Part shown: positions 1,837-35,556 of the stretch, piece after piece
How positions within the stretch are numbered: position 1 is the first letter of the stretch
How the letters are laid out: the number at the start of each line of letters is the position of its first letter
NCBI GenBank assembly: GCA_963793865.1
Contig: CAWCBP010000004.1
Location: 64,703 to 128,702 of the forward strand
Length of the DNA: 64,000 bases
Source of the DNA: an uncultured delta proteobacterium
Lineage (GTDB): Bacteria > Desulfobacterota > WTBG01
Direction of reading: 5' to 3'
Notes under the pieces: generated by a model
What the model saw: the letters and a program-made list of their open reading frames with translations, nothing else
The model's database searches: none
What the model was told of the DNA's origin: nothing
Position numbers and translations under genes: made by a program

Positions 1837-3195
1837 CTACCAATCCAGCTTCACCGACGGGTAGCGGGAAAGCTTTTCTTTGACCAGCTCTTTGATCTCC
1901 TCCATTCTCCCCCGGGTTTTGGCCTCGAAGCGCAACACCAGGATGGGCTGGGTGTTTGAGGCCCTGATCAACGCCCAGCCGTCCTCAAAGCGTATGCGGA
2001 TGCCGTCAATGTCGATCGTTTGATACTGCCGGCCGAACTGTTTGACGAGGTCTTTGACGATGCCGAACTTTTCCTCCTCCGTGCACTCGGCCCTGATTTC
2101 AGGGGTCGACCAGTAAAAAGGAAGGGCGCGGACCAGCGCGCTCAGCGGCCGCTCCGCGTTTGAGAGCAGCTGCAGCAGGCGGCAGGACGCGAATATCCCG
2201 TCATCAAAACCGAAATAGTCATCCATGAAATAAAAGTGGCCGCTCATCTCTCCGCCCACCGGCGCGTGAACCTCTTTCATCTTGGCCTGGATGTTGGGAT
2301 AGCCGGTCTTCCACATCACCGGGGTTCCCCCGGCCCGGGTAATAGTCTCTATCAGCGCCTCGGAACATTTGACATCAAAGACCACCGGCGCCGGATTACG
2401 CGCCAACACCTCAGCGGCGAAAAGAGAGAGGAGCTGGTCCCCGCGCACAATCGCCCCCTGCTCATCAACCGCCCCCAGCCGGTCCGCGTCTCCATCGTAG
2501 GCGACTCCCGCGTCCGCCCCCGCCTCCCGTACCCGCGCGCTCAGCTCAGCCACGTTTTCATCCACCGTGGGATCAGGCAGATGGTGAGGAAAGGCGCCAT
2601 CAGGCTCGCAGTACAGTTCGACCAGGTCACAGCCCAGCTCCTTGAGCAGGCGCGCCGCCAGCGGTCCCGCCGTTCCGTTTCCCGCGTCGGCCACCACCTT
2701 CAGACGGCGCTTCAGGCGTATTCTCGCCTTGATGGCAGCGAGGTACTCATCGACAATCCCCCGCGCCTCGCTGCTTCCTGTGCCGGCCGCATACCTTCCG
2801 GACTCAATAATCGATGCTATCTTTTGAATTTCCTCCCCGAACACCGCCGTTTCCCCCAGGCGCATTTTAAAGCCGTTATACCGGGGGGGGTTGTGGCTCG
2901 CGGTGACCATGATGCCGCCATCGGCTTTGTAATGCATCACCGAAAAGTAAAAGGCGGGCGTGGGAAGCTGGCCGACATCATAGACCCGGCACCCGGTTGA
3001 GAGCAGGCCTTCCATTACTGCACCCTGCAGCTCGCGTGAGCTCAGCCGGTTATCCCTGCCAAGCGCAACCGAGTGTCCGCCCCTCTCTTTGAGGTAGGTG
3101 CCGAATCCCCTGCCGATGCGCACGGCATCTTCACCGGTGAGGGTTTCACCCACCTCACCCCTGATATCGTATTCCCTGAAGATCTCCCTATCCAC
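1837..3195 (-). CDS. phosphomannomutase/phosphoglucomutase (alpha-D-phosphohexomutase family)
   Basis: Active-site phosphoserine loop TASHNPPRYNGFK; sugar-binding EMSGH; N-terminal IFREYDIRG. The start is moved to the GTG at 3195, preceded by AGGAGG, which gives about 453 aa. The longest ORF extends to 3270. Confidence 0.85.
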   Translation of the reverse strand: MDREIFREYDIRGEVGETLTGEDAVRIGRGFGTYLKERGGHSVALGRDNRLSSRELQGAVMEGLLSTGCRVYDVGQLPTPAFYFSVMHYKADGGIMVTASHNPPRYNGFKMRLGETAVFGEEIQKIASIIESGRYAAGTGSSEARGIVDEYLAAIKARIRLKRRLKVVADAGNGTAGPLAARLLKELGCDLVELYCEPDGAFPHHLPDPTVDENVAELSARVREAGADAGVAYDGDADRLGAVDEQGAIVRGDQLLSLFAAEVLARNPAPVVFDVKCSEALIETITRAGGTPVMWKTGYPNIQAKMKEVHAPVGGEMSGHFYFMDDYFGFDDGIFASCRLLQLLSNAERPLSALVRALPFYWSTPEIRAECTEEEKFGIVKDLVKQFGRQYQTIDIDGIRIRFEDGWALIRASNTQPILVLRFEAKTRGRMEEIKELVKEKLSRYPSVKLDW

Positions 3196-3232
3196 GCCAG
3201 TCCTCCTCGTTATTGCCGGATTAATTTTCTCC

Positions 3233-4327
3233 TTACTGCTTTTCCCCGTCTCCCTTCGACAGCTCGGCAAAGTAAGAGCGCACTGCCTGGTACACAGCCT
3301 GAGCCTCTTTCCATGACTTTACATCCTCATCCCCGGGCACTTTTTTACACCTCCGCTCTCCGAAGCTCACCGCCACCGCGGGCATGCCGGTATGCACAAT
3401 GAGAAAATCAGTGCTTTCACCCAGGGACACACGGCTGCAGGAAAACCCGTCGGAGATCTCCTTCCTGAGCAAACCGGCAAGCAGCTTTCCTTTACTGCTG
3501 TTGTAATAGTAGGCTATCCCGGACCGTTTCGCGTGGTCAAGGGAAATGACCAGGTCAGCAGACACCTCCTCTGATTGTAAAACCTTCTCCGCGGCCCCGG
3601 GTGAAGTTTCATCCCTTCGGGTCAGCACGACACCGGCGCCGGCAAACCTGAGCAGCTCTCCTATGTGAAGCGCCAGCTTGAGATTGTCGGCGAACCGCTG
3701 CCGGTCGCGGGAATCGCCGATCACGGGCTCTTCATTTGCCCCGCGGGGATCGAGCATGATGACCTTTCCCCGGAGCAGCCCCCCATCCACCGGCCGGAGC
3801 GTCACCTCCTCTTTCTGAACCAGCCCCGCTCCTCCCCCCTTGAGCATACCCATGACCGGCCGGTAACCATCCCGCTGAACGGTAAAGGGAATGCCGGCGG
3901 CATCAGACTGAAACAAGCAGTACCCAAGGCGATCGGTTTCGCAATATCGCTCCTTCCCCCATGCCACTTGGGCATGCTCGACCGGACTGCCCGCGGGATC
4001 GTGAATATATATCTCTGCCTGACCCCACGCCGGTGAAGCAAACCTCCCCTGATACGAAGCTGACACGGTTCCGCACGCCGCCGTCACCAGCACGCTGCCC
4101 GGATGAACATCCGCCTCGAAATGGGTAACTGCCACTCCCTCCCGGGTCGGCACCACCGTCTCCACCAGCCTGCCCGCTGAAACAGACAAGCTGACCGGCG
4201 TGCCGTCAGCCACCGGGTTGCGGTTGTCATCCAGAACCAGCGCCGTTACCCTGCACCGTGAGCTGCCGTCAGGAGGAATGATTTCAGGGAAAATGCCGCC
4301 TTCTATGCTTGCGGGCGGACGCGACAT
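3233..4327 (-). CDS. Amidase_3-like protein with N-terminal Ig-like (Big) domain; first zinc-ligand His replaced, so possibly non-catalytic
   Basis: The C-terminal half aligns to the Amidase_3 fold of the upstream gene, but the DPGHGG motif reads DPRGAN. The SLDHAK and LGEST motifs are retained. Confidence 0.55.
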   Translation of the reverse strand: MSRPPASIEGGIFPEIIPPDGSSRCRVTALVLDDNRNPVADGTPVSLSVSAGRLVETVVPTREGVAVTHFEADVHPGSVLVTAACGTVSASYQGRFASPAWGQAEIYIHDPAGSPVEHAQVAWGKERYCETDRLGYCLFQSDAAGIPFTVQRDGYRPVMGMLKGGGAGLVQKEEVTLRPVDGGLLRGKVIMLDPRGANEEPVIGDSRDRQRFADNLKLALHIGELLRFAGAGVVLTRRDETSPGAAEKVLQSEEVSADLVISLDHAKRSGIAYYYNSSKGKLLAGLLRKEISDGFSCSRVSLGESTDFLIVHTGMPAVAVSFGERRCKKVPGDEDVKSWKEAQAVYQAVRSYFAELSKGDGEKQ

Positions 4328-5397
4328 GGTAAACTCCGCTCTGCCGGGCCGGGCGCTGTTCCCCCCAGATTCCGTGCCTCCAATCTGATGGAATGTGTGC
4401 CGCCGGCAAGAGGCTTCTCCGGCACATAACGCACCAGACCTGCCTCCGCCTCATAGCGGTGGCTGACCGGCTTCCCGTCAAGGTACAGCTTGATGGATGA
4501 GATATCGATGCCTGTCCCGTGCTTATCATCAGCGACCCCGGCAACCACCTCGGGCCTCGCGTCTTCAACCACAACCCCCGAAGGTGAAATGCCGCTCACG
4601 GAGGGAATGCCCCGCGCGCAGTAGTCACGTATACCCGCGAAATATGCCTCGGCTTCCATTTTGAGATAGCCGTGGAGGTGGAGCCTTTTCTCGTTTTCCC
4701 GGTGGGTGAGATAGGATGCCTCACCCAGAATTGCCGTGCATTCGGTTTTTCTCAGCACGCTGAAATTTCCGGGAAGCACCCGGGCATTCGGCGCGTTAAG
4801 GCCCTCTCTCATGCGCTCCATGACGCAGGTTGCCAGCTCTCTCGAGGGGTCAGCCGGGGAAAGCTGATAGAAAATGGCGAGGTCATTTTTTCGCTGGTCA
4901 TGAATATTGGAATTGTGATGGATGCTGATAAAAAGGTCGGCGGCGTTGCTGCCGATCCTGCTTCTGGCCAGCAGGTCATCAGGTAAACCTTTGGACGTGC
5001 CGCGGGCAACCGCCGTGTCGGCAGTGCGCGTCATAACCGGATGAGCCCCGGCGTTATAAAGCATGCCCCAGAGGTAGAGGGCCACACCCAGATTTACCTC
5101 CGATTCCTTCATCCCCAGTGTTCCCACCGCTCCCCCGAACTGACCCCCGTGCCCCGGGTCTATGACAATGACCTTATCCCTCAAGGCGGCGGTATCGAGT
5201 TCTGCCGCCTGGAAGGGGGAGGGCGGTATCTCCGGCAGCGAGGTGCAGGACGAGATAAGCATCAGGAACACCGCGGCCAGGAACAAATCTATCAGGAGAT
5301 TTATCCGCCCGATGCGTTTTGATCTCCTGTTGCTGCCCGGTGCGTGCCTTTTACAATGCGCCATTGTCGCTAAGGGAATGGGCACAATCCTGCTCAC
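4303..5397 (-). CDS. N-acetylmuramoyl-L-alanine amidase (Amidase_3, AmiC-like) lipoprotein
   Basis: IDPGHGGQFGGAVGTLGMKESEV...ADLFISIHHNS...ILGEASYL is a canonical Amidase_3 zinc site. The N-terminal signal with LISSC lipobox is followed by a C-terminal Ig-like domain. It overlaps the downstream paralog by 25 bp. An alternative start lies at 5364. Confidence 0.8.
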   Translation of the reverse strand: MSRIVPIPLATMAHCKRHAPGSNRRSKRIGRINLLIDLFLAAVFLMLISSCTSLPEIPPSPFQAAELDTAALRDKVIVIDPGHGGQFGGAVGTLGMKESEVNLGVALYLWGMLYNAGAHPVMTRTADTAVARGTSKGLPDDLLARSRIGSNAADLFISIHHNSNIHDQRKNDLAIFYQLSPADPSRELATCVMERMREGLNAPNARVLPGNFSVLRKTECTAILGEASYLTHRENEKRLHLHGYLKMEAEAYFAGIRDYCARGIPSVSGISPSGVVVEDARPEVVAGVADDKHGTGIDISSIKLYLDGKPVSHRYEAEAGLVRYVPEKPLAGGTHSIRLEARNLGGTAPGPAERSLPCRVRPQA

Positions 5398-5544
5398 AGT
5401 TTTTCCACGGGTAAGGTGACTCCAGCCTGCATGATCATATCACAAAAGCCCTGACCGGGGCATCCGGAATGTTGACCGCAGCGCCGTATATATAATAAGG
5501 TTGCAATTATCCTGGTTATTAGCTATAGTAACAGCCGGGTAGCA

Positions 5545-7860
5545 TTGTATAAACTCCAGTTAAAACGAGCACTTGTTGATAACCCCCGCACAGGATATGT
5601 AGAGGAGTTCCATCTTGTGAAATTTCCTGAATTTCATAAGCCGAAGGCATCGTCGATACTGCAGGAAAAAACCCGGCGCAAGCGGGAATTATTCATTATC
5701 ATTGCCGTCGTGCTCTCCATTGTCGTCCTCACCCTCTTGCAGGCATCCATTACCGCTTCCGAAAGCCAGCTGCCCACGACCAAAAACATCCTCATTTACG
5801 GTCTCATCAATATTAATATAACCCTCCTGCTGCTGCTCATTTTTCTGGTGGTGCGCAATGTCGTCAAGCTTGTCTTCGAGCGCAGGCGGGGCATCCTCGG
5901 CGCAAAGCTGCGGACCCGGTTAATAGCGGCATTTGTCGGCCTGTCCATCGTTCCCTCCGTCCTCCTCTTCTGGGTCGCCGCGGAATTTATAACCGCCACC
6001 GTAGAAAGGTGGTTCAGCTCCCAGGTGGAATACTCCCTGTCGCAATCACTCGAGGTCGCCGAGGTATATTACCAGAATACCACTGATAACGCCATGCACT
6101 ATGCCCGGCAAATCAGCAGGATCATTACCAGGGACAGGCTTTTAAGCGAGGCCAATCTCAAGCAGCTCCAGGATTTCATCAATCAGAAGCAGGAAGAATA
6201 CAACCTCGGGGTGGTTGAGGTCTTCTCCTCAACCCTGGAGGAACTGGTAAAGTCCATGAATCCCGGCGTGCCGGTAAAGGGCTTTGTCGGTTCCGATTCA
6301 GCGCTTGTGCAAAAAGGTTTGGAGGGAAAGGAGATTACCAAAATCCAGCCGGCAGGTTCAGGTGATCTCATCAGGGGAGTGGCGCCCATCTACTCCAGCT
6401 GGAAAAAGGACGAGGTGGTCGGGACGCTGGTGGTCAACTACTATGTACCCAAAAGTCTCGTTTCCAAGATGTCCACCATTTCCTACGCCTTCAGGGAGTA
6501 CAAGCAGCAGGAGCTGCTGAAGAATCCCATAAAAACGGCGAACCTGATGATTCTGGCCATTGTCACCCTGCTGATTATCTTCTCCGCCACCTGGTTCGGC
6601 TTTTTTCTTTCCAAGGGACTTACGGGACCTATCCAGCAGCTGGCTGAGGCGACCAACCGCATCACCCAGGGTGACCTGGATTTCACCATAGAAACGGGCA
6701 CTGATGATGAAATGGGAAGCCTGGTTACCTCCTTTAACAAGATGACCGCGGACCTGAAAGCGAGCAAAATCAAAATTGAACAGGCCACCCATGATCTGCA
6801 GGAAAGCAATCTGGAACTGGAGCGCCGGCGGCGGTACACGGAAACCATCCTTACCAACGTCGCGGCAGGAGTGGTCGCCATCGACGAAAGGGGCCTCATA
6901 ACCAGCATAAACAAATCCGCTGAAAATCTCCTCAGGACCACTGCCGGGGTGTCCCTCTCCAAACCCTACGAAGAGGCATTTGCCCAGGAGCAGGTTCAGG
7001 CTGTGCGGCAGCTGGTCAGGGACATACTCTCCTCGGGGAGGAACTCCTTCGACCAGCAGATCAGGCTCAACTTTCCCGACGACAGCATCGAGCTGCTGGT
7101 AAGCGGAACCATGCTGCACGATGACCAGGAAAACTATCTGGGACTGGTTCTGGTGTTCGAAGACATAACCCACATCCAGAAGGCGCAGCGGGCGGCGGCA
7201 TGGCGGGAGGTGGCGCGCAGAATTGCCCATGAAATCAAAAATCCCCTGACCCCCATTCAGCTCTCCGCGCAGCGCCTGAGGAAAAAGTACATGGACCGGT
7301 TCGAGGCCGACGGGAAAATCTTCGATGAATGCACCCGGATCATCATTGACCAGACGGAAGAGATCAAAAACCTGGTCAGCGAATTTTCAAACTTTGCCCG
7401 GATGCCCGCGACCACGCCGCAGCCCAACGATCTCACCGAGGTAATCAATGAGGCAGTCGCCCTTTTTACCGCCTCGCTGAAAGACATATCCATAACGGTG
7501 ATAGAAAAGAGCAAGCCGCCCGTCTTCAGCCTCGACAAGGACCAGATGAAGCGGGCGATCATAAACATCATCGACAATGCCATTGATGCCATGAGCGGCA
7601 AGGGAAGCATCGTCATTGAAATATCCCATGACCAGATATTCAACATTGCCCGGATCGAGATAGCCGACACCGGCTGCGGCATACCCCACGGCACGCGGGA
7701 AAAGCTCTTCGAGCCCTACTTTTCCACCAAAAAGTCAAATATGGGCCTCGGCCTGTCAATCGTGAGCACCATCATTTCCGATCACAACGGCTACATCAGG
7801 GTCAGGGACAATGATCCCCGGGGAACCAAATTTATTATCGAGCTGCCGGTCAGGATGTAA
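5545..7860 (+). CDS. ntrY: sensor histidine kinase, NtrY-like (TM-HAMP-PAS-HisKA-HATPase)
   Basis: N-terminal TM helices, HAMP, PAS, the H-box HEIKNPLTPIQLSAQRL, and N/G1/G2 ATP-binding boxes (DNAIDAM, DTGCGIP, GLGLSIV). The annotated start codon is TTG, so the true start is uncertain. A -35 TTGCAA / -10 TATAGT sits upstream near 5485-5525. Confidence 0.8.
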   Translation: MYKLQLKRALVDNPRTGYVEEFHLVKFPEFHKPKASSILQEKTRRKRELFIIIAVVLSIVVLTLLQASITASESQLPTTKNILIYGLININITLLLLLIFLVVRNVVKLVFERRRGILGAKLRTRLIAAFVGLSIVPSVLLFWVAAEFITATVERWFSSQVEYSLSQSLEVAEVYYQNTTDNAMHYARQISRIITRDRLLSEANLKQLQDFINQKQEEYNLGVVEVFSSTLEELVKSMNPGVPVKGFVGSDSALVQKGLEGKEITKIQPAGSGDLIRGVAPIYSSWKKDEVVGTLVVNYYVPKSLVSKMSTISYAFREYKQQELLKNPIKTANLMILAIVTLLIIFSATWFGFFLSKGLTGPIQQLAEATNRITQGDLDFTIETGTDDEMGSLVTSFNKMTADLKASKIKIEQATHDLQESNLELERRRRYTETILTNVAAGVVAIDERGLITSINKSAENLLRTTAGVSLSKPYEEAFAQEQVQAVRQLVRDILSSGRNSFDQQIRLNFPDDSIELLVSGTMLHDDQENYLGLVLVFEDITHIQKAQRAAAWREVARRIAHEIKNPLTPIQLSAQRLRKKYMDRFEADGKIFDECTRIIIDQTEEIKNLVSEFSNFARMPATTPQPNDLTEVINEAVALFTASLKDISITVIEKSKPPVFSLDKDQMKRAIINIIDNAIDAMSGKGSIVIEISHDQIFNIARIEIADTGCGIPHGTREKLFEPYFSTKKSNMGLGLSIVSTIISDHNGYIRVRDNDPRGTKFIIELPVRM

Positions 7861-7869
7861 GGAGAGGTA

Positions 7870-9222
7870 ATGAAACGAGTGAAGCTGCTGATTGTCGATG
7901 ACGAAGAAAAGATCCTTCAAACCATGAAGGGAAGCCTGGAAGATGAGGATTATGAAGTGCTCACCGCCAAGGACGGGCAGGAGGCCATGGAGAAAGTCCG
8001 CTCGGAAAATCCCGAACTGGTTTTTCTTGACATCTGGCTCCCGGGGATGGACGGCATGGAAACCCTCAAGGCCATCAAGGAATATGACCAGAACCTCGAC
8101 GTGGTGATCATGACCGGACACGGGACCATGAATACCGCCATCCAGGCCATCAAGCTCGGTGCCTTTGACTTTCTGGAAAAACCACTTTCCCTGGACTCCA
8201 TCTTCTCCGTCATTCACAGCGCCCTGGAACAAAAAAGGGGCAGGGCCGAGGAGGCGGAGCCGGCGATTGAGGAGCCGGACGATTTCATCGGTGAAAGCCT
8301 TTCCATCATGCAGATCAAGAAGGAGATAAAGAAGCTTGCCAAAACCGGGAAAAACCTCTTCATCACCGGGGAGAGCGGAACGGGAAAGGAGTTTGCGGCC
8401 CGGCTCATTCACCACGAGAGCCCGCGGAGAAAAAACCCCTTTATCAAATTCAGCTGCACCATCTATTCCCCCGAAGAAATGAGCCACAATCTTTTCGGGA
8501 CGGCGGCGCATGCATCCAGGAAAAACCTGGTTCGAAAAGCCGGCGAGCTGGAGCGGGCGGCAAAGGGGACCCTGTTTCTGGACACCATCGAGGAAATGCC
8601 TCTTTCCATCCAGGAAGAGTTGGCGGAGGCGCTCAAGAAGAAAAAAAACAAGGGGGGCGGCAAACAGGACAAGGCAAATGAGCCGAGAATCCTGGCATCG
8701 TCGAATGACGATCCGGCCTTAATGGTCAAAGAGGGCAAGTTGAACCAGGAGCTTTACGGGCTGCTGGCGGAGGGCACCATCATGCTGCCTCCCCTGCGGG
8801 AGCGAAAGGATGATATCCTGAAGATCTTTACCTTCTTCATGGAGGGATTCTCGCAGAAACACGGCCGGAAGATAAAAGAGCTGGATGAAGACGCGCAGGA
8901 AGCGCTGATGAACTACCACTGGCCGGGCAACAGCAAGGAGCTCAAAAATTTTGCCGAGCGGCTGGTAACATCCGTGGTGACCACCGCCAAAATCGGCCTG
9001 GAAAGCCTGCCCCTTTCCATGCGGGGAGAGCTCGCCGCTTCAAAAACGCGCGCCTTCGACAAATACACTTCCATGAAGGAGGCGGAAAATGCCTGGAAAA
9101 AGGAGTTTCTCATCTTCCACCTGAAGAAGCACAACGTCGACATTCCCGCAACCGCGCGGAGCCTCGGCATGCGCCAGGACACGCTGAGGCGCCATATAGA
9201 CACCTTCGGCATCAAGCTGATG
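7870..9222 (+). CDS. ntrX: sigma-54-dependent response regulator (NtrX/NtrC family: REC + AAA+ sigma-54 activator + Fis-type HTH); no stop codon, reads in-frame into lpxC
   Basis: Receiver LLIVDDEE...DIWLPGMDG; the AAA+ Walker A motif GESGTGKE; a GAFDF-like motif; and a C-terminal HTH ATARSLGMRQDTLRRHIDTFGI. It is 451 aa, a typical NtrC-family length, but the ORF continues without a stop into the next gene. Confidence 0.75.
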
Positions 9223-10083
9223 CCCGGCAAAAAAACCGCGGCGGGTCCCCGCCAGAGAACGCTCAAGAAAAGCGTGGTCTTAAGCGGTGAGGGGCTTCAT
9301 TCAGGGATGAAATCGGGGCTGATACTGTCTCCCCTTCCGCCCAACAGCGGGATCGTGTTCGGCAACATCACTACCAGCGATACCGTGCCCGCCCACCTTG
9401 ACTTCGTGGAATCCACCGACTACGCCACCTCCCTGAAGAGCGGGCAGGCGTATGCCCGGACCATCGAACACTTCATGGCGGTGCTCCATGCCTACCACAT
9501 CAGCAACCTTCAGGTCAAAATCAGCGGCGAAATCCCCATCATGGACGGCTCGGCGCTTGAATTCTGCCAGCTTATCGAGGAGGCGGGCATCGATGAGCAG
9601 GACGCCCCCCTCGAGGAAATCGTCATCGAGGAGAAATATGTGGTCGGCGACCCCTCGCCGGACTCCAAGTACATTTCCATAGAGCCGCACCCCTCCTTCA
9701 CCGTCAAATACCTGCTCAACTACCCCAGCCCGGTGGGCAAACAGGAATTCTCCTTCACCTTAAAGGACGCTCAATCCTTTAAGGACCTCATCGCACCGGC
9801 ACGCACCTTCGGCTTCCTCAAGGATATTGGTGAGCTGCAGAAGCGGGGTTTGGCCAGCGGGGGAAAGCTGCTCAACTGTATTCTCATCGATGATGAAAAG
9901 GTGGTGAACACTGAGCTGCGCTTCCCGGAAGAGTTTGCCCGCCACAAAATCCTTGATCTCATGGGCGACTTTTACCTGCTGGGCAAACCCATACGCGGCC
10001 TGGTGACCGCCCAGATGACCGGCCACACGGACAACAGCGAGCTCTTAAAAAAGATACGTGACAGCCTCGGCGCCTTCTGGTAA
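9223..10083 (+). CDS. lpxC: UDP-3-O-acyl-N-acetylglucosamine deacetylase
   Basis: MPGKKTAAGPRQRTLKKSVVLSGEGLHSGMK...EHFMAVL...IPIMDGSA...ARTFGF..GGKLLNCILIDD...HKILDLMGDFYLLG aligns along its full length to LpxC (about 287 aa). It sits in the same frame as ntrX with no intervening stop. Confidence 0.8.
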   Translation, partial: PGKKTAAGPRQRTLKKSVVLSGEGLHSGMKSGLILSPLPPNSGIVFGNITTSDTVPAHLDFVESTDYATSLKSGQAYARTIEHFMAVLHAYHISNLQVKISGEIPIMDGSALEFCQLIEEAGIDEQDAPLEEIVIEEKYVVGDPSPDSKYISIEPHPSFTVKYLLNYPSPVGKQEFSFTLKDAQSFKDLIAPARTFGFLKDIGELQKRGLASGGKLLNCILIDDEKVVNTELRFPEEFARHKILDLMGDFYLLGKPIRGLVTAQMTGHTDNSELLKKIRDSLGAFW

Positions 10084-10173
10084 AAGGGTGCGGGGCGGTT
10101 CACAATGATACCGATCCTTGAAGGGCGGCCTTCAAGGATTTTCCATGCCACAACGATGCGGACAGGAGGAACC

Positions 10174-11828
10174 ATGGCGGGCATAAAGGAAGAGACAGAA
10201 CGCTGGGAACAAACCATCGTTAAAAAGTCCCTGCAGAAATTCCCCGAGCGCAAGGAGCAGTTCCGCACCACCTCGGGGATCACCATGAAGCGGCTGCATA
10301 CGCCTGCGGATATCGATGATGCAGACTATGTCACCGAGCTGGGGTTTCCGGGCGAATATCCCTTCACCCGGGGGGTACAGCCCACCATGTACCGGGGCAG
10401 GTACTGGACCATGCGCCAGTACTCCGGTTTCGGTACCGCCGAGGACACCAACAGGCGCTACAAGTATCTCCTGGATCAGGGACAGACGGGCTTGAGCGTT
10501 GCCTTTGATCTGCCCACCCAGATCGGATACGACTCGGACCACCCCCTGAGCACGGGGGAGGTGGGCAAGTGCGGCGTGGCCATCGACTCCCTCGGGGACA
10601 TGGAGATCCTCTTCGACGGCATACCCCTGAACAAGGTGAGCACCTCCATGACCATCAACTCCACCGCAGCCACCCTGCTGGCCATGTACATGGTGGTGGC
10701 TGAAAAACAGGGGGTTTCCCCGGCAGAGCTCCGCGGCACCATCCAGAACGACATTCTGAAGGAATACATCGCCCGGGGAACCTACATCTACCCGCCGCAG
10801 CCGTCCATGAGAATCGTCACCGACATATTCGCCTTCTGCAAGGATCATCTCCCCCAGTGGAACAGCATCAGCATCAGCGGGTACCACATCCGGGAGGCCG
10901 GCTCATCGGCGGTCCAGGAAGTGGCCTTTACCCTGGCCGACGGCATCGCTTACGTGGACGCGGCCATCCGGGCGGGCCTGGATGTTGACGAGTTTGCCCA
11001 GCGGCTTTCCTTCTTTTTCAACTGCCACAACAATTTTTTCGAGGAGATCGCCAAGTTCCGCGCCGCGCGCCGGCTCTGGGCCCGCATCATGAAGGAGCGC
11101 TTTAACGCCAAAAAGCCCGCATCCTGCATGCTTCGCTTTCACACCCAGACCGCGGGCTGCACCCTCACCGCCCAGCAGCCGCGCAGCAACGTGGTCCGGG
11201 TCGCCTACCAGGCACTGGCCGCGGTGCTGGGCGGAACCCAGTCCCTGCACACCAACTCCTTCGATGAGGCGTTCTGCCTGCCCACGGAAGAGGCCGTCAG
11301 CCTGGCCCTGAGGACGCAGCAGATCGCGGCCTATGAAACCGAGGTGGCCGACAGCATCGATCCGCTCGGCGGCTCCTACCTGGTGGAGTCCCTGACCAAC
11401 GACATCGAGCGGGAATCAAAGGGCTACATCCAGAAGATTGACGCCATGGGCGGGATGATCAGGGCCATCGAAGAGGGATACGTGCAGAAGGAAATCGCAA
11501 ACAGCGCCTACATCTACCAGAAAGAGGTGGAAAGCAAAAAGCGCATCATCGTGGGGATGAACCAGTTCACCACCGACGACCCCTTTTCTGCAAGCTGCTC
11601 AAGGTCAGCACCGAGGTTGAAAACCTGCAAACAAGCAAGCTCAAGAAGCTGAAGGCGGATCGCGGGATGGTGCCCGGGCAAGCAGAGGCGCTCGGCGCCC
11701 TGAAAGCAGGCCGCCGAAGGAACCGCCAATCTCATGCCGCCGGTGGTTGATGCGGTCAGGGCCTATGCGACCCTGGGCGAGATCGCGGACGTGCTGCGGG
11801 GCGTGTTCGGGGAGTATCGCGAGCGCTG
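10174..11828 (+). CDS. methylmalonyl-CoA mutase family, catalytic (substrate-binding TIM barrel) subunit without B12-binding domain; two frameshifts near the 3' end
   Basis: [60 protein letters not shown] is an MCM signature. The ATG at 10174 follows AGGAGGAACC. After residue ~470 the conserved C-terminal sequence ([23 protein letters not shown]... then [37 protein letters not shown]) continues in the other two frames, at about 11580 and about 11690. Confidence 0.7.
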
Positions 11829-12066: not shown

Positions 12067-13162
12067 CTACTGGCTGAACTTGAAGTGGAGCATGTCCCCG
12101 TCACGGACGGTATACTCTTTTCCCTCCAGGCGCAGGTGACCTTCCTCCCGGGCCGCTGAAAGGGAGCCCGCTTTCACAAAGTCATCATAGGACACCACCT
12201 CGGCCTTGATGAAGCCGTGCTCCATATCGGAATGGATTTTTCCGGCGGCCTGCGGCGCTTTGGTCCCCCTGGCCACGGTCCACGCCCGCAGCTCCGTGCC
12301 CACGGTGGTATAAAAGGTAATCAGGTTGAGCACGCCGTAGCCGGCCTTAACCAGCTGCTCCAGGCCCGATTCCGCGAGTCCCATGTCCGCCATAAATTCC
12401 TTCCGCTCCTCCTCGCTCTCAAGCAGCGCGATCTCGGCCTCAAGGTCACCGCAAATGACAACGAACCCCGCCTGTTCCCGCCGCGCCCTTTCTTCCACCG
12501 CTGCCGAGCGGCTCCTCTGCCCGGAGGTCCTCCTCGTCCACATTTGCCACATACAGGAGCGGCTTGGCGGTCAGGAGGGAGAGCTCGTGCAGGACATGAA
12601 GCTCCTGCCCGTCCCACTCCATGGTTCGCACCGTCCTCCCCTGCTCCAGGCCCGACTGCGCCTTGCGGTACACGGCCATTTCCTCCTCCGCTTTTTTATC
12701 CCCGACCCGCAGGAGCTTCCCCGCTTTTTCCATCCGCTTTTCCACCGTCTGCAGATCGGCCAGCATCAGTTCCGTGGCAACAATCTCCATGTCCCGCCCC
12801 GGATCAAGATCCCCGTAAAGGTGAGAAACATCATGTTTTTTAAAGCAGCGGACCACGTGGGCGATGGCATCCACCGCGCGGATGTGCCCCAAAAACTGGT
12901 TTCCCAGCCCTTCCCCCCGGCTGGCGCCTTTGACTAGGCCGGCAATATCCACAAATTCAATGGTGGTCGGGGTAACCGCGGGCGGCTTGATCATCGCCGC
13001 GATGGTCTGCAACCGCCGGTCCGGGACGGCAACCGTCCCCTTGTTGCAGTCGATGGTGCAGAAGGGATAGCTGGAGGCGGGCACCTGCGCCGAGGCCAGG
13101 GCGTTGAAAATCGTCGATTTGCCCACATTGGGCAATCCTACAATGCCGCAGGTGAAACCCAT
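12067..13162 (-). CDS. ychF: ribosome-binding ATPase YchF (Obg-family GTPase); one frameshift around 12446-12552
   Basis: The N-terminus MGFTCGIVGLPNVGKSTIFNAL (P-loop) and the C-terminal TGS domain ...KIHSDMEHGFIKAEVVSYDDF... lie in two overlapping ORFs (12446..13162 and 12067..12552) that together span 365 codons. Confidence 0.8.
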
Positions 13163-18491: not shown

Positions 18492-18710
18492 TCTGCTCCA
18501 TCCAGCACCCGGCAGGGTGCGGAGGGACGCTCACACTGATTATCGGAGTTAAAGCAACCGATAGCGCCATCATATCGGCATACCGCTTCCTATTACCCCT
18601 GACATCATGACACAGGCCTGTCGATGGGATTATTCCTCCAACCTCCTTCTCCCGTTTATTTTGCGGACGATAAAAAGGATGTGCGCACGGGACCGCGTCT
18701 TCCTGATATT

Positions 18711-18726
18711 TGGTACACAAATTGCT
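18711..18726 (+). promoter_or_regulatory. candidate sigma-54 (-24/-12) promoter upstream of the kamA operon
   Basis: TGGTACacaaaTTGCT has exact GG-N10-GC spacing of the TGGCAC-N5-TTGCW consensus. It lies 58 nt upstream of the ATG at 18784. The window also encodes a sigma-54 activator. Confidence 0.45.
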
Positions 18727-18783
18727 TCACACTTCAGCGGGCATATATACACGCTGGATGCACTTTCACCTGTGGAGACATGC

Positions 18784-20055
18784 ATGGAATCACACACAAG
18801 ATCGCTGGCCCGATGCAACCGTCACAAGAAATCCTATCTATTGGAGGAGGCAGACAGTCCGGATGACAAGCCCCCCAGTCATAGCAGGCTTACCGTCCCG
18901 CAGATGTTCCGCGGCGTTACTGCTTCACAGTGGAACGACTGGCGGTGGCAGTTTCGGAATCGCATCACCACCGTTGATCAGCTTAACCGCTACCTCCCGC
19001 TGACCGCGGATGAAAAGGCGGCCCTTGCGCTTACCATTGCAACCTACCCCATGGCCATAACCCCCTATTATTTTTCCCTCATTTCCGGCGATGATCCCGA
19101 CGATCCCATCAGGCTTCAGGCAGTCCCCCGCGTGGAAGAGATCGCGCTCAGCCAGTACGGGCAGGAGGACCCCCTGGCTGAAAATGAGGATGCCGTCGTC
19201 CCCGGCCTGGTGCACCGCTATCCCGACCGCTGCCTGATGGTTCTGACCAACATCTGCCCCATGCTCTGCCGGCACTGCACGCGCAAGTGGGCGTGGAAAA
19301 GCGGGGCCTGGGTGCGCACGCAGCAGGAGGTCCAGCGCATGCTGGGCTACGTTCGCTCAAACACCTCCATCAGAGATGTGATCATATCCGGGGGTGACGT
19401 GCTGAGCCTCTCCACCCGGAGGCTTGAATCGATCATCGCCCAGCTGCGCTCCATCCCGCACCTGGAGATCATCCGCATCGGCACGCGCTACCCGGTGGTG
19501 CTCCCCCAGCGCATCGATGAAGCCCTCTGCTCCATGCTGGCCGGGTACGGGCCCATCTGGGTCAACACCCATTTTAATCATCCCCGGGAACTCACGGCGG
19601 AGGCGGCAGCGGCCTGCGACCGCCTGCTGCGGAGCGGCATCCCGCTTAACAACCAGTCGGTTCTGCTGAAGGGCGTCAACGACACGGCGGAAATTCAGCG
19701 TGCGCTCTGCCAGGGGCTCCTGCGCATCAAAGTCAGGCCCTACTACCTTTTTCAGACCGATGATGTGGAGGGGACGGAGCACCTGCGCGTCCCCATCGAA
19801 ACCGGCATCGCCATCATGGACGCCCTGCGCGGCCACACCTCGGGTCTTGCCGTACCGCAGTTCGTTGTCGACCTGCCGGGCGGAGGGGGAAAGGTGCCGC
19901 TTCAGCCCGATTACCTGCTGGAGCAGCATGAAGAGGAATTCGTGTTCCGCAACTACGAGGGCCGGGTCTACCGCTGCAGAAATCCCCGAAGGCAGAAGGA
20001 GCCCGGCAGGGTCCCGTTAACCGTCATGCACAAGCCGCATACAACCCTCATGTAA
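18784..20055 (+). CDS. kamA: lysine 2,3-aminomutase family radical SAM protein (KamA/AblA-like)
   Basis: Cluster motif CPMLCRHCTRKW (CxxxCxxC of the KamA type), N-terminal WNDWRWQFRNRITTVDQL, and a PLP-region GGD motif. The longest ORF starts at 18607; the start is set at the ATG at 18784. Confidence 0.8.
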   Translation: MESHTRSLARCNRHKKSYLLEEADSPDDKPPSHSRLTVPQMFRGVTASQWNDWRWQFRNRITTVDQLNRYLPLTADEKAALALTIATYPMAITPYYFSLISGDDPDDPIRLQAVPRVEEIALSQYGQEDPLAENEDAVVPGLVHRYPDRCLMVLTNICPMLCRHCTRKWAWKSGAWVRTQQEVQRMLGYVRSNTSIRDVIISGGDVLSLSTRRLESIIAQLRSIPHLEIIRIGTRYPVVLPQRIDEALCSMLAGYGPIWVNTHFNHPRELTAEAAAACDRLLRSGIPLNNQSVLLKGVNDTAEIQRALCQGLLRIKVRPYYLFQTDDVEGTEHLRVPIETGIAIMDALRGHTSGLAVPQFVVDLPGGGGKVPLQPDYLLEQHEEEFVFRNYEGRVYRCRNPRRQKEPGRVPLTVMHKPHTTLM

Positions 20056-20081
20056 CTGCACAGCTCAAGGTGCGCATTTAA

Positions 20082-21092
20082 ATGATACTGGGCCTGGCAT
20101 ACGATCTGAAAAGCGATATCCTCCCCGGTGAGGCCGATCCCGATGACGCGCTGGAGGAGTACGATTCGGCCGAAACCGTGGACTCCATAGCCGAAGCGCT
20201 TGTCTCGCTGAAGCACACGGTGGTTCGCCTGGGGGGCGGAAAATCCTTTCTCACCTCGGTCCTCAGCCAGCGGGTGGACATGGTCTTCAACATCTCTGAA
20301 GGACGGGGCAATTACCGGAGCAGGGAGGTGCAGGTGCCGGCGGTCCTGGAGATGCTCGACATCCCCTACGTCGGCTCTGACCCGGCATGCCTTGCCGTCT
20401 GCCTGGACAAGCCCCTGGCAAAACACCTGGCGGCATCGGCCGGCATTCCGACGCCCCGATGGCGTTTAATAGCCGACCGGAAGGCACTTGACAGCAGCCC
20501 GTCCGGCTTCACCTTTCCCGCTTTTGTCAAACCCGCCTGGGAGGGATCCAGCAAAGGCATCGGCAAAACCTCCAGGGTGACCGGGTTCCCGGAGATGGAG
20601 CGTGAAGTCATCCGGCTGCTCACCCTGTACCGTCAGCCGGTCCTGGTGGAGGAATTTATTCAGGGAAGAGAGCTTACCGTGGGCATCGTCGGTACCCCGC
20701 CCCGGGTCATGGGCATTATGGAAGTGATTCCCCGCCGGGGGACTGACCCCGACTTTTTTTACTCCATAGACATCAAGCGCGACTGGCGGCGCCAGGTGCG
20801 CTACCAATGCCCCGCTGATTTGTCCGCCGGACTGGAGGAACGTATTGTCGCCCACAGCCTGAAGCTGTTTAAAATCCTGGGGTGCAGGGACATGGCCCGC
20901 ATTGATTTCCGCCTCGACCCGCAGGGACAGCCGTATTTTATTGAGGCCAATCCCCTGCCCGGGCTCAAGCCGGGCCACGGCGACTATCCCCTGATCGCCC
21001 GGCACCGGGGTATTGACTATCGTACACTCATCGGGTCCATCATTGACAGCGCCATCAGCCGGCAGCAACCATGCGCACGGATGTCTGCATAG
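20082..21092 (+). CDS. ATP-grasp ligase, D-alanine--D-alanine ligase-like
   Basis: Ddl-type N-domain followed by an ATP-grasp fold (...GRELTVGIVG..., FIEANPLPGL). 336 aa. Its end overlaps the start of the next gene. Confidence 0.7.
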   Translation: MILGLAYDLKSDILPGEADPDDALEEYDSAETVDSIAEALVSLKHTVVRLGGGKSFLTSVLSQRVDMVFNISEGRGNYRSREVQVPAVLEMLDIPYVGSDPACLAVCLDKPLAKHLAASAGIPTPRWRLIADRKALDSSPSGFTFPAFVKPAWEGSSKGIGKTSRVTGFPEMEREVIRLLTLYRQPVLVEEFIQGRELTVGIVGTPPRVMGIMEVIPRRGTDPDFFYSIDIKRDWRRQVRYQCPADLSAGLEERIVAHSLKLFKILGCRDMARIDFRLDPQGQPYFIEANPLPGLKPGHGDYPLIARHRGIDYRTLIGSIIDSAISRQQPCARMSA

Positions 21093-22114
21093 TATATAAT
21101 GAGCCCTTGCCCGGCGCGTTCGAGGCCGCGGGCGAAAGCACCGCGGTTGCCAGCGTGCTTGACGCGGTGAGCGCCGTGGCCGAGGCCCTTCGCTCAAGGG
21201 GATACTCCTATTATCTGCTTCCCATCAAACCGGGCGGGTGCAGCGACATGCTCCGGCGCCTGGCCCGGCTGAACCCCGGGATAATTTTCAACCTCTTTGA
21301 GGGCTTTGACCGGGACCCCGACAGCGAGGGAAGGGTTGCCCGCCTGCTCGAGGAAACCGGCATTGCCGTCACTGGCGCACCGTCGGGCGCCCTCACCGAC
21401 TGCATCAACAAGGTGAAGACCAAGTCACGCCTGCGCAGCCTCGGCCTGCCGACTGCCGACTGGCAGCTTTACCAACCCTGTGCCGCCATGCAGCTGCCGG
21501 CACCTGCGCTTCCCTTCCCCTGTGTTGTCAAGCCGCTGGAGACGGACGCAAGCCACGGGTTAACCGAGCGGAGCCTGGTCGGCAACCTTCATGAAATGCG
21601 TGAACAGGTTGAGCTGGTGCACGCCCGCTACGGGCAGGCGGCGCTGGTGGAGGAATTCCTCCCCGGCCGCGAGTTTAACATCCTGGTCATGGGTCCGCCC
21701 CTGCGCCTCTTCTCCGTCGCCGAGATCTGCTACAGCCTGCCCGCAGGCAAACCGCAGCTGCTCACCTACGCATCCAAGTGGGAAGAGGATGATGAATACT
21801 ATGCCGCAACCCGGGTGCAGTGCCCCGCTCAGCTGTCTGATGCCGATGCCCGTGCGATTGAAAACCTGGCCGCCCGCACCTTTGTCGAGCTGGTCGGGAG
21901 GGGTTACGCGCGGATCGACATGCGCGCAGACAGCTCGGGTGAGATTAACATACTGGAAATAAACCCCAATCCTGACATTGGCCCGGCAAGCGGCGCCAAG
22001 AGGGAAGCAGAGGCGTCCGGCATGAGCTATGACGACTTCCTCTGTAATATCATGGCACAGGCCCGGTCCGGACGGGATTCCGCCGCCCCCGGCGCCTGTG
22101 CATACCTGTCCTGA
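21071..22114 (+). CDS. ATP-grasp ligase, D-alanine--D-alanine ligase-like (second paralog)
   Basis: VCIVYNEP..., KTKSRLRSLGLPTADW, GREFNILVMG, ILEINPNPD give the same architecture as the preceding gene. Confidence 0.7.
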   Translation: MRTDVCIVYNEPLPGAFEAAGESTAVASVLDAVSAVAEALRSRGYSYYLLPIKPGGCSDMLRRLARLNPGIIFNLFEGFDRDPDSEGRVARLLEETGIAVTGAPSGALTDCINKVKTKSRLRSLGLPTADWQLYQPCAAMQLPAPALPFPCVVKPLETDASHGLTERSLVGNLHEMREQVELVHARYGQAALVEEFLPGREFNILVMGPPLRLFSVAEICYSLPAGKPQLLTYASKWEEDDEYYAATRVQCPAQLSDADARAIENLAARTFVELVGRGYARIDMRADSSGEINILEINPNPDIGPASGAKREAEASGMSYDDFLCNIMAQARSGRDSAAPGACAYLS

Positions 22115-30378: not shown

Positions 30379-31299
30379 TCATTCACCCTCTTCCGGTTGC
30401 TCTCCCTCAACTTCCTTTGCGGTCAGCGTCAGGGTTATCGGCTGAACAGACTGCGCCCCTTCGGGGTCAATGGCGATAACCTCGAAATTGTAGGTGCCCC
30501 CCTGCTGCTGATCACTGATCTGCCACCTGACCAGTCCTGAATCGGAATCAATGGTCATGCCTTCAGGGGCCGAAGAAAGACTGAATTTCACCTCATCTTC
30601 ATCGGGATCCTCGGCAGTGACCGTGTATTCGTATGAAGAAACTTCCATGGTCTCCCCGGCCGGATTGGAGGTGATAAGAGGAGCGCTGTTGAGAATAACC
30701 GCTTCGCTGGAATAGTATGAAACTTCGGGCGACTCACCATCGCTGACACGCGCCTGACAGCCGATTCTGTCGCCCTTTTTGAAATAGTCAGTTGACAGCG
30801 TCGATCCTGTCGCTCCCGGAATGTCCTCCTTGCCCTTTTTCCACTGGTAGGATGTCCTGACATACTCGCCGTCGGCATCAAACACATCCAAAAGCGCCGT
30901 CAATTCATCCTTGGAGTGTGCCGGCATCGGCTCGACAGTGAATGACCTGAGAACAGGAGGGCTGTTTGCAATGATTACCGGCTTGGACGGAACCGGCTTG
31001 CCTTTCATCTCATTGACATAAGGAGTTACCTCAACCGTAATGGTATCTCCTTTTTGAAAGTTGTCCTGCTTAAGGGTGCTCTCCGTTTCCCCCATGATCT
31101 CTTTTCCGTTTTTCATCCAGCGGTAACTCACATCCGCCGTTTCCGCCTGATCAAACTTCACCACCGTCTCCAGCAGGCTGCTTTTGGAAGGATTCTCAGG
31201 CAGTATTTCAACCGAACTGATGGCAGGAACCGTCACCGTATCAGCACTTTTCCCTTCTCCTCCTTTGTGCCGCATGAAGTAACCACGACCAGCATACAT
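30379..31299 (-). CDS. secreted protein with three tandem Ig-like beta-sandwich repeats
   Basis: Three repeats of about 90 aa carry Y(R/Q)W(M/K)KNG.EI.G.T.STL...FQKGD.I..EV. The N-terminus is hydrophobic. Confidence 0.5.
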   Translation of the reverse strand: MYAGRGYFMRHKGGEGKSADTVTVPAISSVEILPENPSKSSLLETVVKFDQAETADVSYRWMKNGKEIMGETESTLKQDNFQKGDTITVEVTPYVNEMKGKPVPSKPVIIANSPPVLRSFTVEPMPAHSKDELTALLDVFDADGEYVRTSYQWKKGKEDIPGATGSTLSTDYFKKGDRIGCQARVSDGESPEVSYYSSEAVILNSAPLITSNPAGETMEVSSYEYTVTAEDPDEDEVKFSLSSAPEGMTIDSDSGLVRWQISDQQQGGTYNFEVIAIDPEGAQSVQPITLTLTAKEVEGEQPEEGE

Positions 31300-31889
31300 C
31301 CCAAGACAACCAGTCTGTACCAGCCCAAACTAGTCCGCTTCATCTTTTGATCCCTCCCCCGTGCCCTTTCGGGGCGCCATCAATCATGATAATGTAATTC
31401 TATAGACATGTCATTCTGCGGCTCGACCGCAGAATCCAGTTTGAATTTTTTATTGGATCCTGCGATCAAGTCGCAGGATGACCCGGCACTTTGAACAGAA
31501 GAAAGATTTCTCGCTCACGCTCGAAATGACATGGGGGAGGCATCAAAATAATACGGTAGGAGCGGCTTCAGCCGCGAAACCTATCCTTTCCCGCTGCCTT
31601 TCGAAGGAGCTTTCAACCTTAATCCTCTTCCGCCCTCCCGGTCATTTCGAAGAAGCGAAGCGACTGAGAAATCTTATTCTATGTTCGCGTTAAACAACGA
31701 GATTGCCGCACTCAATTTGGTCTCTCGCAATGACCATAAAATATCGCCATTTTCATGCATCATAGTGCAAATAGCTTTTTTGTCAAGCAATCAATTATCG
31801 CAGATAATCGCGTTTTCCCCGCAAAAAAGATCCCTCAGCAGAGGCTCTGCTGAGGGGTCCCCCTCCTTATTAAAGGTTAGTGAAAGATA

Positions 31890-34800: not shown

Positions 34801-35556
34801 ACCATCAAGTTCATCAATCTCTCCCTTGACACCGGCAATCCACTCGGCGGTGCCGGCTCCTGCGGAGGCCGCACCAACCAGGCCCATGGCTACATCCCAG
34901 GCTGCTAAATTTGCTATGCCCTGATTAAAACGGTCATCACGGATCTTCTGTACATAGCTCGCCGTGCTATAGAGTACGCCTAAGTTTAGTCTGTCATACG
35001 TGCCGGCGGCCAGAGGTCCATAGAAATAGGTATTGACGTGGTCAGTGTAAGTGGTTCCCCCGAATATCTGGTCAAGCTTAGCTGCCAGATATCCGTCCGA
35101 AGGTGAGAAATTGTAAACCTTTGTTAAAAGGAAAGTACCTGCATCCTGCAGGGCTGCAAGATGATCAGGATCTGCCGTGTGTGAATAGGCCTGGGCAAGA
35201 CCCATGGCGATGGGACCAACTGTATTGGTGGGACTTGCGGAAGCGGGATTACCATCATTAAGCGGCCAGTCCCATCCTCCATCATTGTTCTGCAAAGCAG
35301 CAAGCCTGTCGGCACCGCTCTGCATTGAGGTATCAATTGCGACGCTCGCGTCAATGGCGGCCTGAATGGTTGAATAGCAACCACCTGTTCCGCCGGTATT
35401 AACGCACAACGTTTCCGCACTTGCGGCTCCCAGTCCCAAAGGGATGAGCACTGCCGTAATGACCACAGAAGAAAATATTGATGTAAGCTTTTTCATTCTT
35501 CCCCTCCATCGTGAATAGGTTTTAAAGCAAAGCTTCGTTGAAAATAATCTTCTCAC
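31890..35556 (-). CDS. large secreted protein: signal peptide, alpha/alpha-toroid-like region, two right-handed beta-helix (NosD/pectate-lyase-like) segments, thrombospondin type-3 Ca-binding repeats, Cys-rich modules and C-terminal dockerin-like repeat pair; frameshift near 33730-33830
   Basis: ORFs 33817..35556 (MKKLTSIFSSVVITAVLIPLGLGAASA signal, NNTIYD beta-helix turns) and 31890..33728 (IENN/VENN beta-helix repeats; TSP3 DTDGDGTCDFDDICPNDPNNDVDGD...DGDGFGDGCDNCP; terminal CDADVDGSDASIFKLYFGR and CDADVDGTDASRFKADFGR) are contiguous in different frames. Confidence 0.65.

Follow-up and report, generated by a model that had tools for sequence, protein, structure and literature searches.

LpxC carries out the step that commits the cell to lipid A biosynthesis and that usually controls its rate; it is a major antibiotic target, and the matching of its activity to peptidoglycan and phospholipid synthesis has been described in detail for only a few Proteobacteria (FtsH/LapB/YejM, Lon and MurA). 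In a stretch of 64,000 nucleotides (nt) from an uncultured delta proteobacterium (contig CAWCBP010000004.1, positions 64,703 to 128,702 of the forward strand; hereafter the window), the gene for a regulator resembling NtrX runs in frame into a gene for LpxC. This locus raises the question of whether regulator and enzyme are truly one protein and, if so, what a receiver domain would be doing on a lipid A enzyme. The original prediction, made from the sequence alone, read the locus as a sigma-54 activator of exactly 451 residues, the very next codon being an ATG that begins LpxC, and weighed an unprecedented fusion against a sequencing indel in a run of seven adenines (A7). In this study, the same fusion is found to recur in hundreds of uncultured bacteria, and its conserved architecture suggests that LpxC is probably the output of a response regulator, with a kinase that would control the committed step of lipid A biosynthesis post-translationally.

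The ORF list of the window contains a single open reading frame (ORF) of 737 amino acids (aa) at 7870-10083 on the forward strand. Domain scans place in it, in order, a receiver (REC), an AAA+ domain, a lid, a Fis-type helix-turn-helix (HTH), a linker of ~11 aa and a full-length LpxC (Table 1). The DNA at the junction, ...GGC ATC AAG CTG followed by ATG CCC GGC AAA AAA ACC GCG..., is free of stop codons from Leu450 (9217-9219) into the ATG at 9220, which bears out the earlier claim of one uninterrupted frame. Two details required correction: the regulator part has 450 residues, Met being residue 451, and the A7 run, previously placed at 9233-9239, lies at 9229-9235, where it codes for Lys-Lys.

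Because two frameshifted genes lie within 3 kb downstream, the possibility that a sequencing or assembly indel, for instance in the A7 run, had wrongly merged separate ntrX and lpxC genes was taken seriously. The gene for the GTPase YchF is split into overlapping ORFs of different frames, probably through a frameshift error of the assembly or as a pseudogene, and is intact (364 aa) in the related locus L002. A frame is also broken in the methylmalonyl-CoA mutase gene that directly follows the fusion gene: the ORF matches positions 1-439 of the 512-position Pfam model, the conserved C-terminal sequence resumes in another frame, and the gene is intact (550 aa) in L005. This second frameshift within 3 kb marks the assembly of the window as indel-prone, and two related loci from long-read metagenome-assembled genomes (MAGs), L007 and L008, have broken ORFs elsewhere in the fusion gene. 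However, a homologue search covering 5.8 billion proteins, with matches from NCBI, JGI, ENA and Logan, returned at least 120 distinct 90%-identity clusters with the same fusion (720-768 aa, 49-97% identity, 99-100% query coverage), all of which contain PF00072, PF00158 and PF03331. In an alignment of 114 full-length members of this long form, from which the residue and junction counts given here are taken, the frame from HTH to LpxC is kept in 114/114, down to 49% identity, and none shows the stop codon after ntrX for which a comparison with related genomes had been proposed. Linker length varies by 0-3 aa and only in whole codons, and the Lys-Lys encoded by the A7 run is conserved in close homologues (the window's lineage and a group 64-72% identical to it) and mostly basic elsewhere. 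Even in the broken ORFs of L007 and L008, HTH and LpxC share one frame. Furthermore, the exact 737-aa protein is present in an independent Logan assembly (run ERR10755943), the DNA of which differs from the window at 2/2805 positions and is identical at the junction and in the A7 run. Given the conserved in-frame junction and the identical second assembly, an indel is effectively refuted and its probability negligible; the regulator-LpxC fusion is genuine, a real and conserved single gene.

A single gene could nevertheless give two products, either by initiation at the ATG at 9220 or by cleavage in the linker. This ATG falls exactly at the domain boundary in the window, and the linker (~10-12 residues) is basic and predicted to be disordered. 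However, linker sequences vary (23% mean identity) and Met451 is not conserved, its position being occupied by L, Q, I, A, F, R or S in homologues and already by Leu in a 97% identical protein (P0001). Directly before the ATG at 9220 no Shine-Dalgarno (SD)-like sequence was seen, unlike the strong SD before the fusion gene itself (7861-7867), and no promoter-like site was found upstream of it on the forward strand. The conserved LpxC core opens 11 residues after Met451 with QRTLK(K/R)S, which we take to be the N-terminus of canonical standalone LpxC. Since Met451 is not conserved, lacks an SD or promoter before it and precedes the core, this apparent start codon reads as a coincidence of the window's lineage rather than as the beginning of LpxC. 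An internal start at this position was rejected, and separate NtrX and LpxC products from this gene are very improbable.

The receiver at the N-terminus appears to have a working phospho-acceptor site: D10, D11, D54 and K104 are invariant, F101 is aromatic, and position 82 is T in 110/114 and S in 4/114. In the AAA+ domain, the Walker A motif GxxGxGK is kept in 113/114; the Walker-B Asp is present in only 73/114, and the residue after it is A, S or T, never the conserved catalytic Glu. No GAFTGA-like motif is present in any of the 114 homologues, and the corresponding region, which is rich in indels, reads NLFGTAAHASRKNLVRKAG in the window. Because GAFTGA and the Walker-B Glu are missing, the regulator half is not the functional sigma-54 activator that it was first taken to be; NtrX likewise lacks GAFTGA (bioRxiv 10.1101/2023.06.06.543975). 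The best NCBIfam match for the N-terminal 448 residues is indeed NtrX (NF051870), over positions 3-452 of 452 of the model, and Brucella NtrX (5m7n) aligns end to end with aa 5-448 (E 9.8e-73). The layout is also of the NtrX type, with a REC, an AAA+ domain without GAFTGA and a Fis-type HTH encoded directly downstream of an NtrY_N-containing kinase gene. However, as the score of 336 bits falls below the NtrX equivalog cut-off of 600, the regulator half is better described as NtrX-like than as a certified NtrX equivalog. Mean identity among the 114 long forms is 70% for REC, 68% for LpxC, 48% for the lid, 47% for the HTH, 42% for the AAA+ and 23% for the linker; the AAA+ is therefore the least conserved domain, the linker not being counted as one. 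The two ends of the protein, best conserved and with invariant functional residues, would thus be what selection keeps.

The LpxC half appears to be complete and catalytically competent. Pfam LpxC (PF03331) matches aa 462-729 over positions 1-266 of 268 (E 4.6e-81; 272.7 bits against a cut-off of 27), and the NCBIfam lpxC model TIGR00325 scores 250.7 bits against a cut-off of 187.25. The motifs TIEH (E533, H534), RHKILDLMGD (H692, K693, D696) and TGH (H719) are present, and the equivalents of E78, H79, T191, H238, K239, D242 and H265 are invariant in 114/114 long forms; we take these to be the E. coli zinc ligands H79, H238 and D242 and the catalytic E78 and H265, together with T191 and K239. 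The catalytic and zinc-binding residues are also invariant in 61/61 proteins of a short form, REC-LpxC, in which T646 is T in 60 and S in 1. The corresponding part of an AlphaFold2 (AF2) model has the two-domain LpxC fold and superposes on the enzymes of P. aeruginosa, E. coli and A. aeolicus (Foldseek; template-modelling score on the target 0.83-0.92, root-mean-square deviation 2.2-2.4 Å). The fused LpxC stops right after its last helix, without a C-terminal tail or degron, and the 64-kb window contains no second lpxC. Transcription factors with fused sensor domains of enzymatic origin are common, and only some 11 residues separate the HTH from LpxC, so the domain might instead bind a lipid A precursor or product and feed back on DNA binding by the NtrX part. 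Such a sensor is hardly to be expected, however, to have all of its catalytic and zinc-binding residues invariant across 114 long and 61 short forms and to score as an lpxC equivalog above the curated cut-off; moreover, most members of the family have no DNA-binding domain to regulate, and we consider this role highly improbable.

The distribution of the fusion bears most directly on what the receiver does. One genome per GTDB species was scanned for exact 8-residue peptides from the LpxC part of the window, which returned 72 loci and cannot reveal divergent paralogues, and the ORF around each match was read. Architectures were counted among 236 LpxC-domain proteins: 35 have the complete order REC-AAA-lid-HTH-LpxC (Thermodesulfobacteriota MAGs and one labelled Acidobacteriota), 7 are REC-AAA-lid-LpxC without the HTH (including Nitrospinota), 2 are REC-HTH-LpxC without the AAA+, 67 are REC-LpxC of about 420-480 aa (Ca. 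Binatia, Syntrophobacterales, Aminicenantes and others) and 109 are standalone LpxC, the rest being partial or broken forms. The HTH, the AAA+ or both have been lost repeatedly in relatives, always sparing REC and LpxC, and the modules between the two have proved expendable in the course of evolution. Short forms are highly abundant: the best 120 clusters for one Binatia query are all at least 73% identical to it and contain PF00072 and PF03331 only; NCBI and JGI name such proteins simply 'LpxC'. In the 61 short forms the REC active-site residues D10, D11, D54, T/S82 and K104 are kept, together with the LpxC catalytic residues. Their REC is matched best by the NtrX model (137 bits, against 100 or fewer for any other family), one of them (L012) scores 246 bits against TIGR00325, and some keep an NtrC-type post-REC helix (LxENxRLRE). 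Short REC-LpxC proteins of about 430 aa (L012, L014, L052, L060 and others; P0270-P0389) come mainly from Ca. Binatia and are usually encoded behind an NtrY-type kinase gene.

In a HMMER search of 1.84 billion representatives, the ~50 best matches to the LpxC domain are almost all N-terminally extended, and canonical LpxC of 270-320 aa appear only at about 43% identity or lower. A neighbour-joining tree of LpxC domains unites all fused forms in one clade separate from standalone LpxC, within which short and intermediate forms branch from among the long ones, so that repeated domain loss is indicated. The tree was midpoint-rooted and places short forms basally, and it does not settle the polarity of the root; an NtrX-LpxC ancestor is favoured because the REC of the short forms is of the NtrX type, the NtrY partner is kept, remnants of the post-REC helix persist and intermediates exist. 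Separately, the Syntrophobacterales bin204 chromosome (CP070774.1, 2.07 Mb) carries two paralogous REC-LpxC genes (L018 and L023) about 130 kb apart, neither with an adjacent NtrY-type kinase and each preceded by a gene for a 232-aa coiled-coil membrane protein without a Pfam match.

A fusion can be real and yet uncoupled, serving only to ensure co-expression and equal stoichiometry of a DNA-binding NtrX and a constitutive LpxC, with phosphorylation affecting DNA binding alone. The window's lineage has kept its HTH, the linker is flexible with no inter-domain interface predicted, and NtrX and DVU2934-type proteins are known transcriptional regulators of lpxC (PMC7240162, PMC3333781), all of which would suit this arrangement. 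However, it is at odds with the repeated loss of HTH, AAA+ or both while REC and LpxC stay joined, and with the abundant REC-LpxC forms that have no DNA-binding domain but keep the phospho-acceptor site and, mostly, the adjacent NtrY-type kinase. Because the receiver of these forms has no output other than LpxC, they contradict an uncoupled fusion, which we regard as distinctly unlikely.

The candidate partner of the receiver is encoded directly upstream. The stop codon of the NtrY-type kinase gene lies 9 nt before the ATG of the fusion gene, and given this short gap and the fusion gene's own SD, the two genes are probably co-transcribed. An AT-rich block upstream of ntrY (5480-5530, forward strand), conserved in L008 and L002, contains a sigma-70-like sequence, TTGCAA-17-TATAGT (5501-5529, forward strand), which is the likely promoter of an operon of ntrY and the fusion gene; no obvious regulator palindrome was found in this upstream region. 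In an all-against-all clustering of 839 neighbouring ORFs from the 72 loci, the NtrY-type kinase is the only broadly conserved neighbour, and a homologous kinase lies immediately upstream in 45/64 fused loci, with Binatia and Nitrospinota examples that have the full NtrY architecture. The adjacency of NtrYX and lpxC, which the original prediction called notable, thus proves to be meaningful.

In the mechanism proposed here, the NtrY-like kinase would sense an envelope, periplasmic or redox cue and phosphorylate Asp54 of REC. The phosphorylated REC would shift the dimer or oligomer state of the protein, and the altered state would in turn change LpxC activity, access of the lipid substrate or stability. 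In the window's lineage, the HTH may also bind DNA independently of sigma-54, as NtrX does. As to direction, kinase signalling might restrain LpxC, by a faint analogy with Rhodobacter and Desulfovibrio, in which lpxC expression goes up when the kinase is lost.

The receiver might act on the stability of LpxC instead of on catalysis, phosphorylation exposing the enzyme to, or hiding it from, an AAA+ protease or unfoldase in the manner of FtsH/LapB or RssB. LpxC levels are under proteolysis in E. coli and probably, via Lon, in some alpha-proteobacteria (review PMC12444477). Neither tail nor degron is present in the fused LpxC, and the disordered linkers could be sites of engagement. In three loci (L048 and L049, labelled Aminicenantes, and L064, labelled Clostridia), a gene for a ClpB-like double-AAA+ protein lies directly upstream of REC-LpxC, its end overlapping the start of REC-LpxC in L048 and L049, which may hint at unfoldase- or protease-linked control. 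However, this neighbour is confined to one small group and no conserved protease gene lies near the other loci; control through stability is unlikely. It is in any case a variant of the mechanism above, inseparable from allostery by sequence analysis.

Several observations weigh against control of LpxC by its receiver. Control by phosphorylation is a reading of architecture and conservation. The AF2 model of the window protein, made with a 77-sequence alignment, has a mean predicted local distance difference test (pLDDT) score of 82 and a predicted template-modelling (pTM) score of 0.45, with low confidence at 127-131, 214-221 (the former GAFTGA loop), 386-394 and 452-457 (the HTH-LpxC linker), pLDDT being below 50 in the GAFTGA-loop region and at 452-457; the HTH helices span 402-420, 425-432 and 436-445. 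In a model of a Binatia short form (pTM 0.65), residues 127-157 are disordered. Both forms look like folded modules on flexible tethers, and since neither of the two models contains a confident REC-LpxC or HTH-LpxC interface, they point to no allosteric path. Some short forms, in Syntrophobacterales and Aminicenantes, have no adjacent kinase. Should a canonical standalone lpxC exist elsewhere in these genomes, the fusion might turn out to be a specialized or accessory paralogue. Finally, no cultured carrier was identified, all sequences coming from MAGs or metagenomes.

Table 1. Coordinates of the fusion gene, its parts and neighbouring genes in the window, and of ClpB-like genes at three related loci (positions at the latter are those of the respective locus).
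Feature	Locus	Position	Strand	Basis
Fusion gene REC, AAA+, lid, HTH, linker, LpxC, 737 aa	Window	7870-10083	+	ORF list, domain scans, at least 120 homologous clusters, second assembly
SD of fusion gene, GGAGAGG, strong	Window	7861-7867	+	Direct sequence reading
Receiver (REC), aa 7-115, phospho-acceptor Asp54	Window	7888-8214	+	Pfam Response_reg, E 7.4e-32
Degenerate AAA+ and lid, aa 140-391	Window	8287-9042	+	Pfam Sigma54_activat aa 140-301, AAA_lid_14 aa 310-391
Fis-type HTH, aa 402-450	Window	9073-9219	+	NCBIfam NtrX model, Brucella NtrX 5m7n alignment, AF2
Inter-domain linker MPGKKTAAGPR, aa 451-461, with non-conserved Met451 and A7 run	Window	9220-9252	+	Alignment, pLDDT
Full-length LpxC deacetylase domain, aa 462-737	Window	9253-10080	+	Pfam, TIGR00325, Foldseek
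NtrY-type sensor histidine kinase gene	Window	5545-7860	+	Pfam NtrY_N, HAMP, PAS, HisKA, HATPase_c
Amidase_3 gene, divergent from ntrY	Window	4303-5397	-	Pfam
Amidase_3 gene, divergent from ntrY	Window	3233-4327	-	Pfam
glmM-like phosphohexomutase gene, divergent from ntrY	Window	1837-3270	-	Pfam
Methylmalonyl-CoA mutase gene, break near 11590	Window	10105-11652	+	Pfam
ychF, MMR_HSR1 part	Window	12446-13162	-	Pfam
ychF, YchF-GTPase_C part	Window	12067-12552	-	Pfam
ClpB-like protein, 945-998 aa (AAA, AAA_2, ClpB_D2-small)	L048	6676-9513		Pfam
ClpB-like protein, as above	L049	6523-9513		Pfam
ClpB-like protein, as above	L064	6517-9513		Pfam

NtrY/NtrX of alpha-proteobacteria are among the closest known systems. 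The window kinase has the NtrY_N, HAMP, PAS, HisKA and HATPase order and lies directly upstream of its regulator, and the regulator half, end to end with Brucella NtrX (structures 5m7n/5m7o/5m7p), has no GAFTGA. A tie to the cell envelope and to lpxC expression also exists on the NtrYX side: NtrYX represses lpxC in R. sphaeroides, in which deletion of ntrYX raises lpxC mRNA 8.8-fold and increases lipopolysaccharide (PMC7240162), as well as in Caulobacter (review PMC12444477). Unlike NtrX, the window regulator is covalently joined to LpxC, scores below the equivalog cut-off and has a degenerate Walker B, and the hosts of the fusion are not alpha-proteobacteria but Thermodesulfobacteriota, Binatia, Nitrospinota and Aminicenantes-type MAGs. 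Furthermore, alpha-proteobacterial control of lpxC by NtrYX is transcriptional and indirect.

A second comparison lies within the same broad group as the window, the former Deltaproteobacteria, in which DVU2931/DVU2934 and Dde_3000/Dde_3003 pair an NtrC-family regulator with a cognate kinase. For the Desulfovibrio pair DVU2931/DVU2934, lpxC is the sole target (PMC3333781), and in D. alaskensis lpxC is up-regulated in a mutant of the kinase Dde_3000 (PMC4045070). DVU2934, which is likened to the window protein by description and not by sequence, differs from it in having an intact GAFTGA, in activating a sigma-54 promoter (PMC4641369, PMC4045070) and in being separate from LpxC. Because the only target of this pair is lpxC, a history in which a regulator was fused to the product of its own target gene and its transcription machinery then decayed would be attractive by analogy.

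Response regulators with enzymatic outputs are known, as is two-component control of lpxC at the transcriptional level. CheB methylesterase, the GGDEF proteins PleD/WspR and the HD-GYP protein RpfG similarly combine a receiver with a canonical pocket, a flexible linker, an enzyme domain and a histidine kinase partner; unlike these, the window protein has as its output a lipid A biosynthetic metallo-amidase and not a signalling enzyme, and its long form keeps vestigial AAA+ and HTH modules between input and output. One natural LpxC fusion is well known, LpxC-FabZ (NF009667/PRK13188), the LpxC half of which is matched by the window LpxC with 203 bits; there, a pathway enzyme is attached to the C-terminus of LpxC, whereas the window protein has a signalling module at the N-terminus and no FabZ. 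Post-translational control of the committed lipid A step is also exerted by FtsH/LapB(YciM)/YejM in E. coli and by MurA-LpxC activation in P. aeruginosa (review PMC12444477). These systems act through separate proteins and a C-terminal degron, whereas the fused LpxC is tail-less and its putative regulator lies in cis.

The remaining neighbours of the fusion gene are lineage-specific and often envelope-related. The arrangement of a glmM-like gene and two Amidase_3 genes beside ntrY recurs in L002, L005 and L008, and a functional link of these genes to the fusion gene would be conjectural. Binatia loci carry genes for a D-Ala-D-Ala carboxypeptidase with a SPOR domain and for an LPG_synthase_TM protein, and Syntrophobacterales loci carry UppS and glycolysis genes; no lipid A gene cluster was found in the neighbourhood analysis or in the window.

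Elsewhere in the window, a 910-aa ORF at 38334-41069 (reverse strand) contains 10 cysteine-rich 'Dicty_CTDC' repeats, of a family named after slime-mould proteins. It belongs to a region at 36200-41069 on the same strand that adjoins an 821-aa ORF without a Pfam match and genes for beta-helix and He_PIG Ig-domain proteins (30379-35556), and the whole looks like an unusual cluster of surface or secreted proteins. At 18607-22114 (forward strand), two tandem D-Ala-D-Ala-ligase-like ATP-grasp genes lie behind a gene for a lysine-2,3-aminomutase-like radical SAM protein, and the three may form a small cassette for amino-acid or peptide modification. At 57590-58630 (reverse strand), an IS200-type Y1 transposase domain is found in a 345-aa ORF, far longer than the usual IS200 transposase, next to the gene for a 610-aa TPR protein.

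Full-text literature searches returned no description of LpxC fused to a receiver or NtrX-like regulator, nor of LpxC as an output domain, and in a 2025 review on the regulation of lipid A, NtrYX figures solely as a transcriptional regulator. A receiver or NtrX-like regulator fused in cis to LpxC thus appears to be undescribed, though present in public databases under generic names, and the labels 'LpxC' or 'NtrX' hide the architecture. The word 'unprecedented' in the original prediction accordingly holds for the searchable literature and fails for nature, as the architecture is widespread, with at least 120 long-form and at least 120 short-form clusters. It is an evenly balanced question whether these proteins constitute an undescribed class of response regulators, in several uncultured diderm phyla (Thermodesulfobacteriota among them), in which the receiver directly gates LpxC and which arose when a transcriptional regulator of lpxC became fused to the enzyme and its sigma-54, AAA+ and HTH functions then decayed. 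If so, LpxC with a receiver in cis and an NtrY-type membrane kinase as its partner would solve the problem of control in a new way that is simple to study experimentally, and gating by the receiver would replace or supplement the proteolytic control that has been described in Proteobacteria. Such gating would also provide a mechanistic rationale for the indirect link of NtrYX to the envelope and lpxC in alpha-proteobacteria, and the gradation from REC-AAA-HTH-LpxC to REC-LpxC would offer a clear case in nature of a transcription factor becoming a post-translational regulator.

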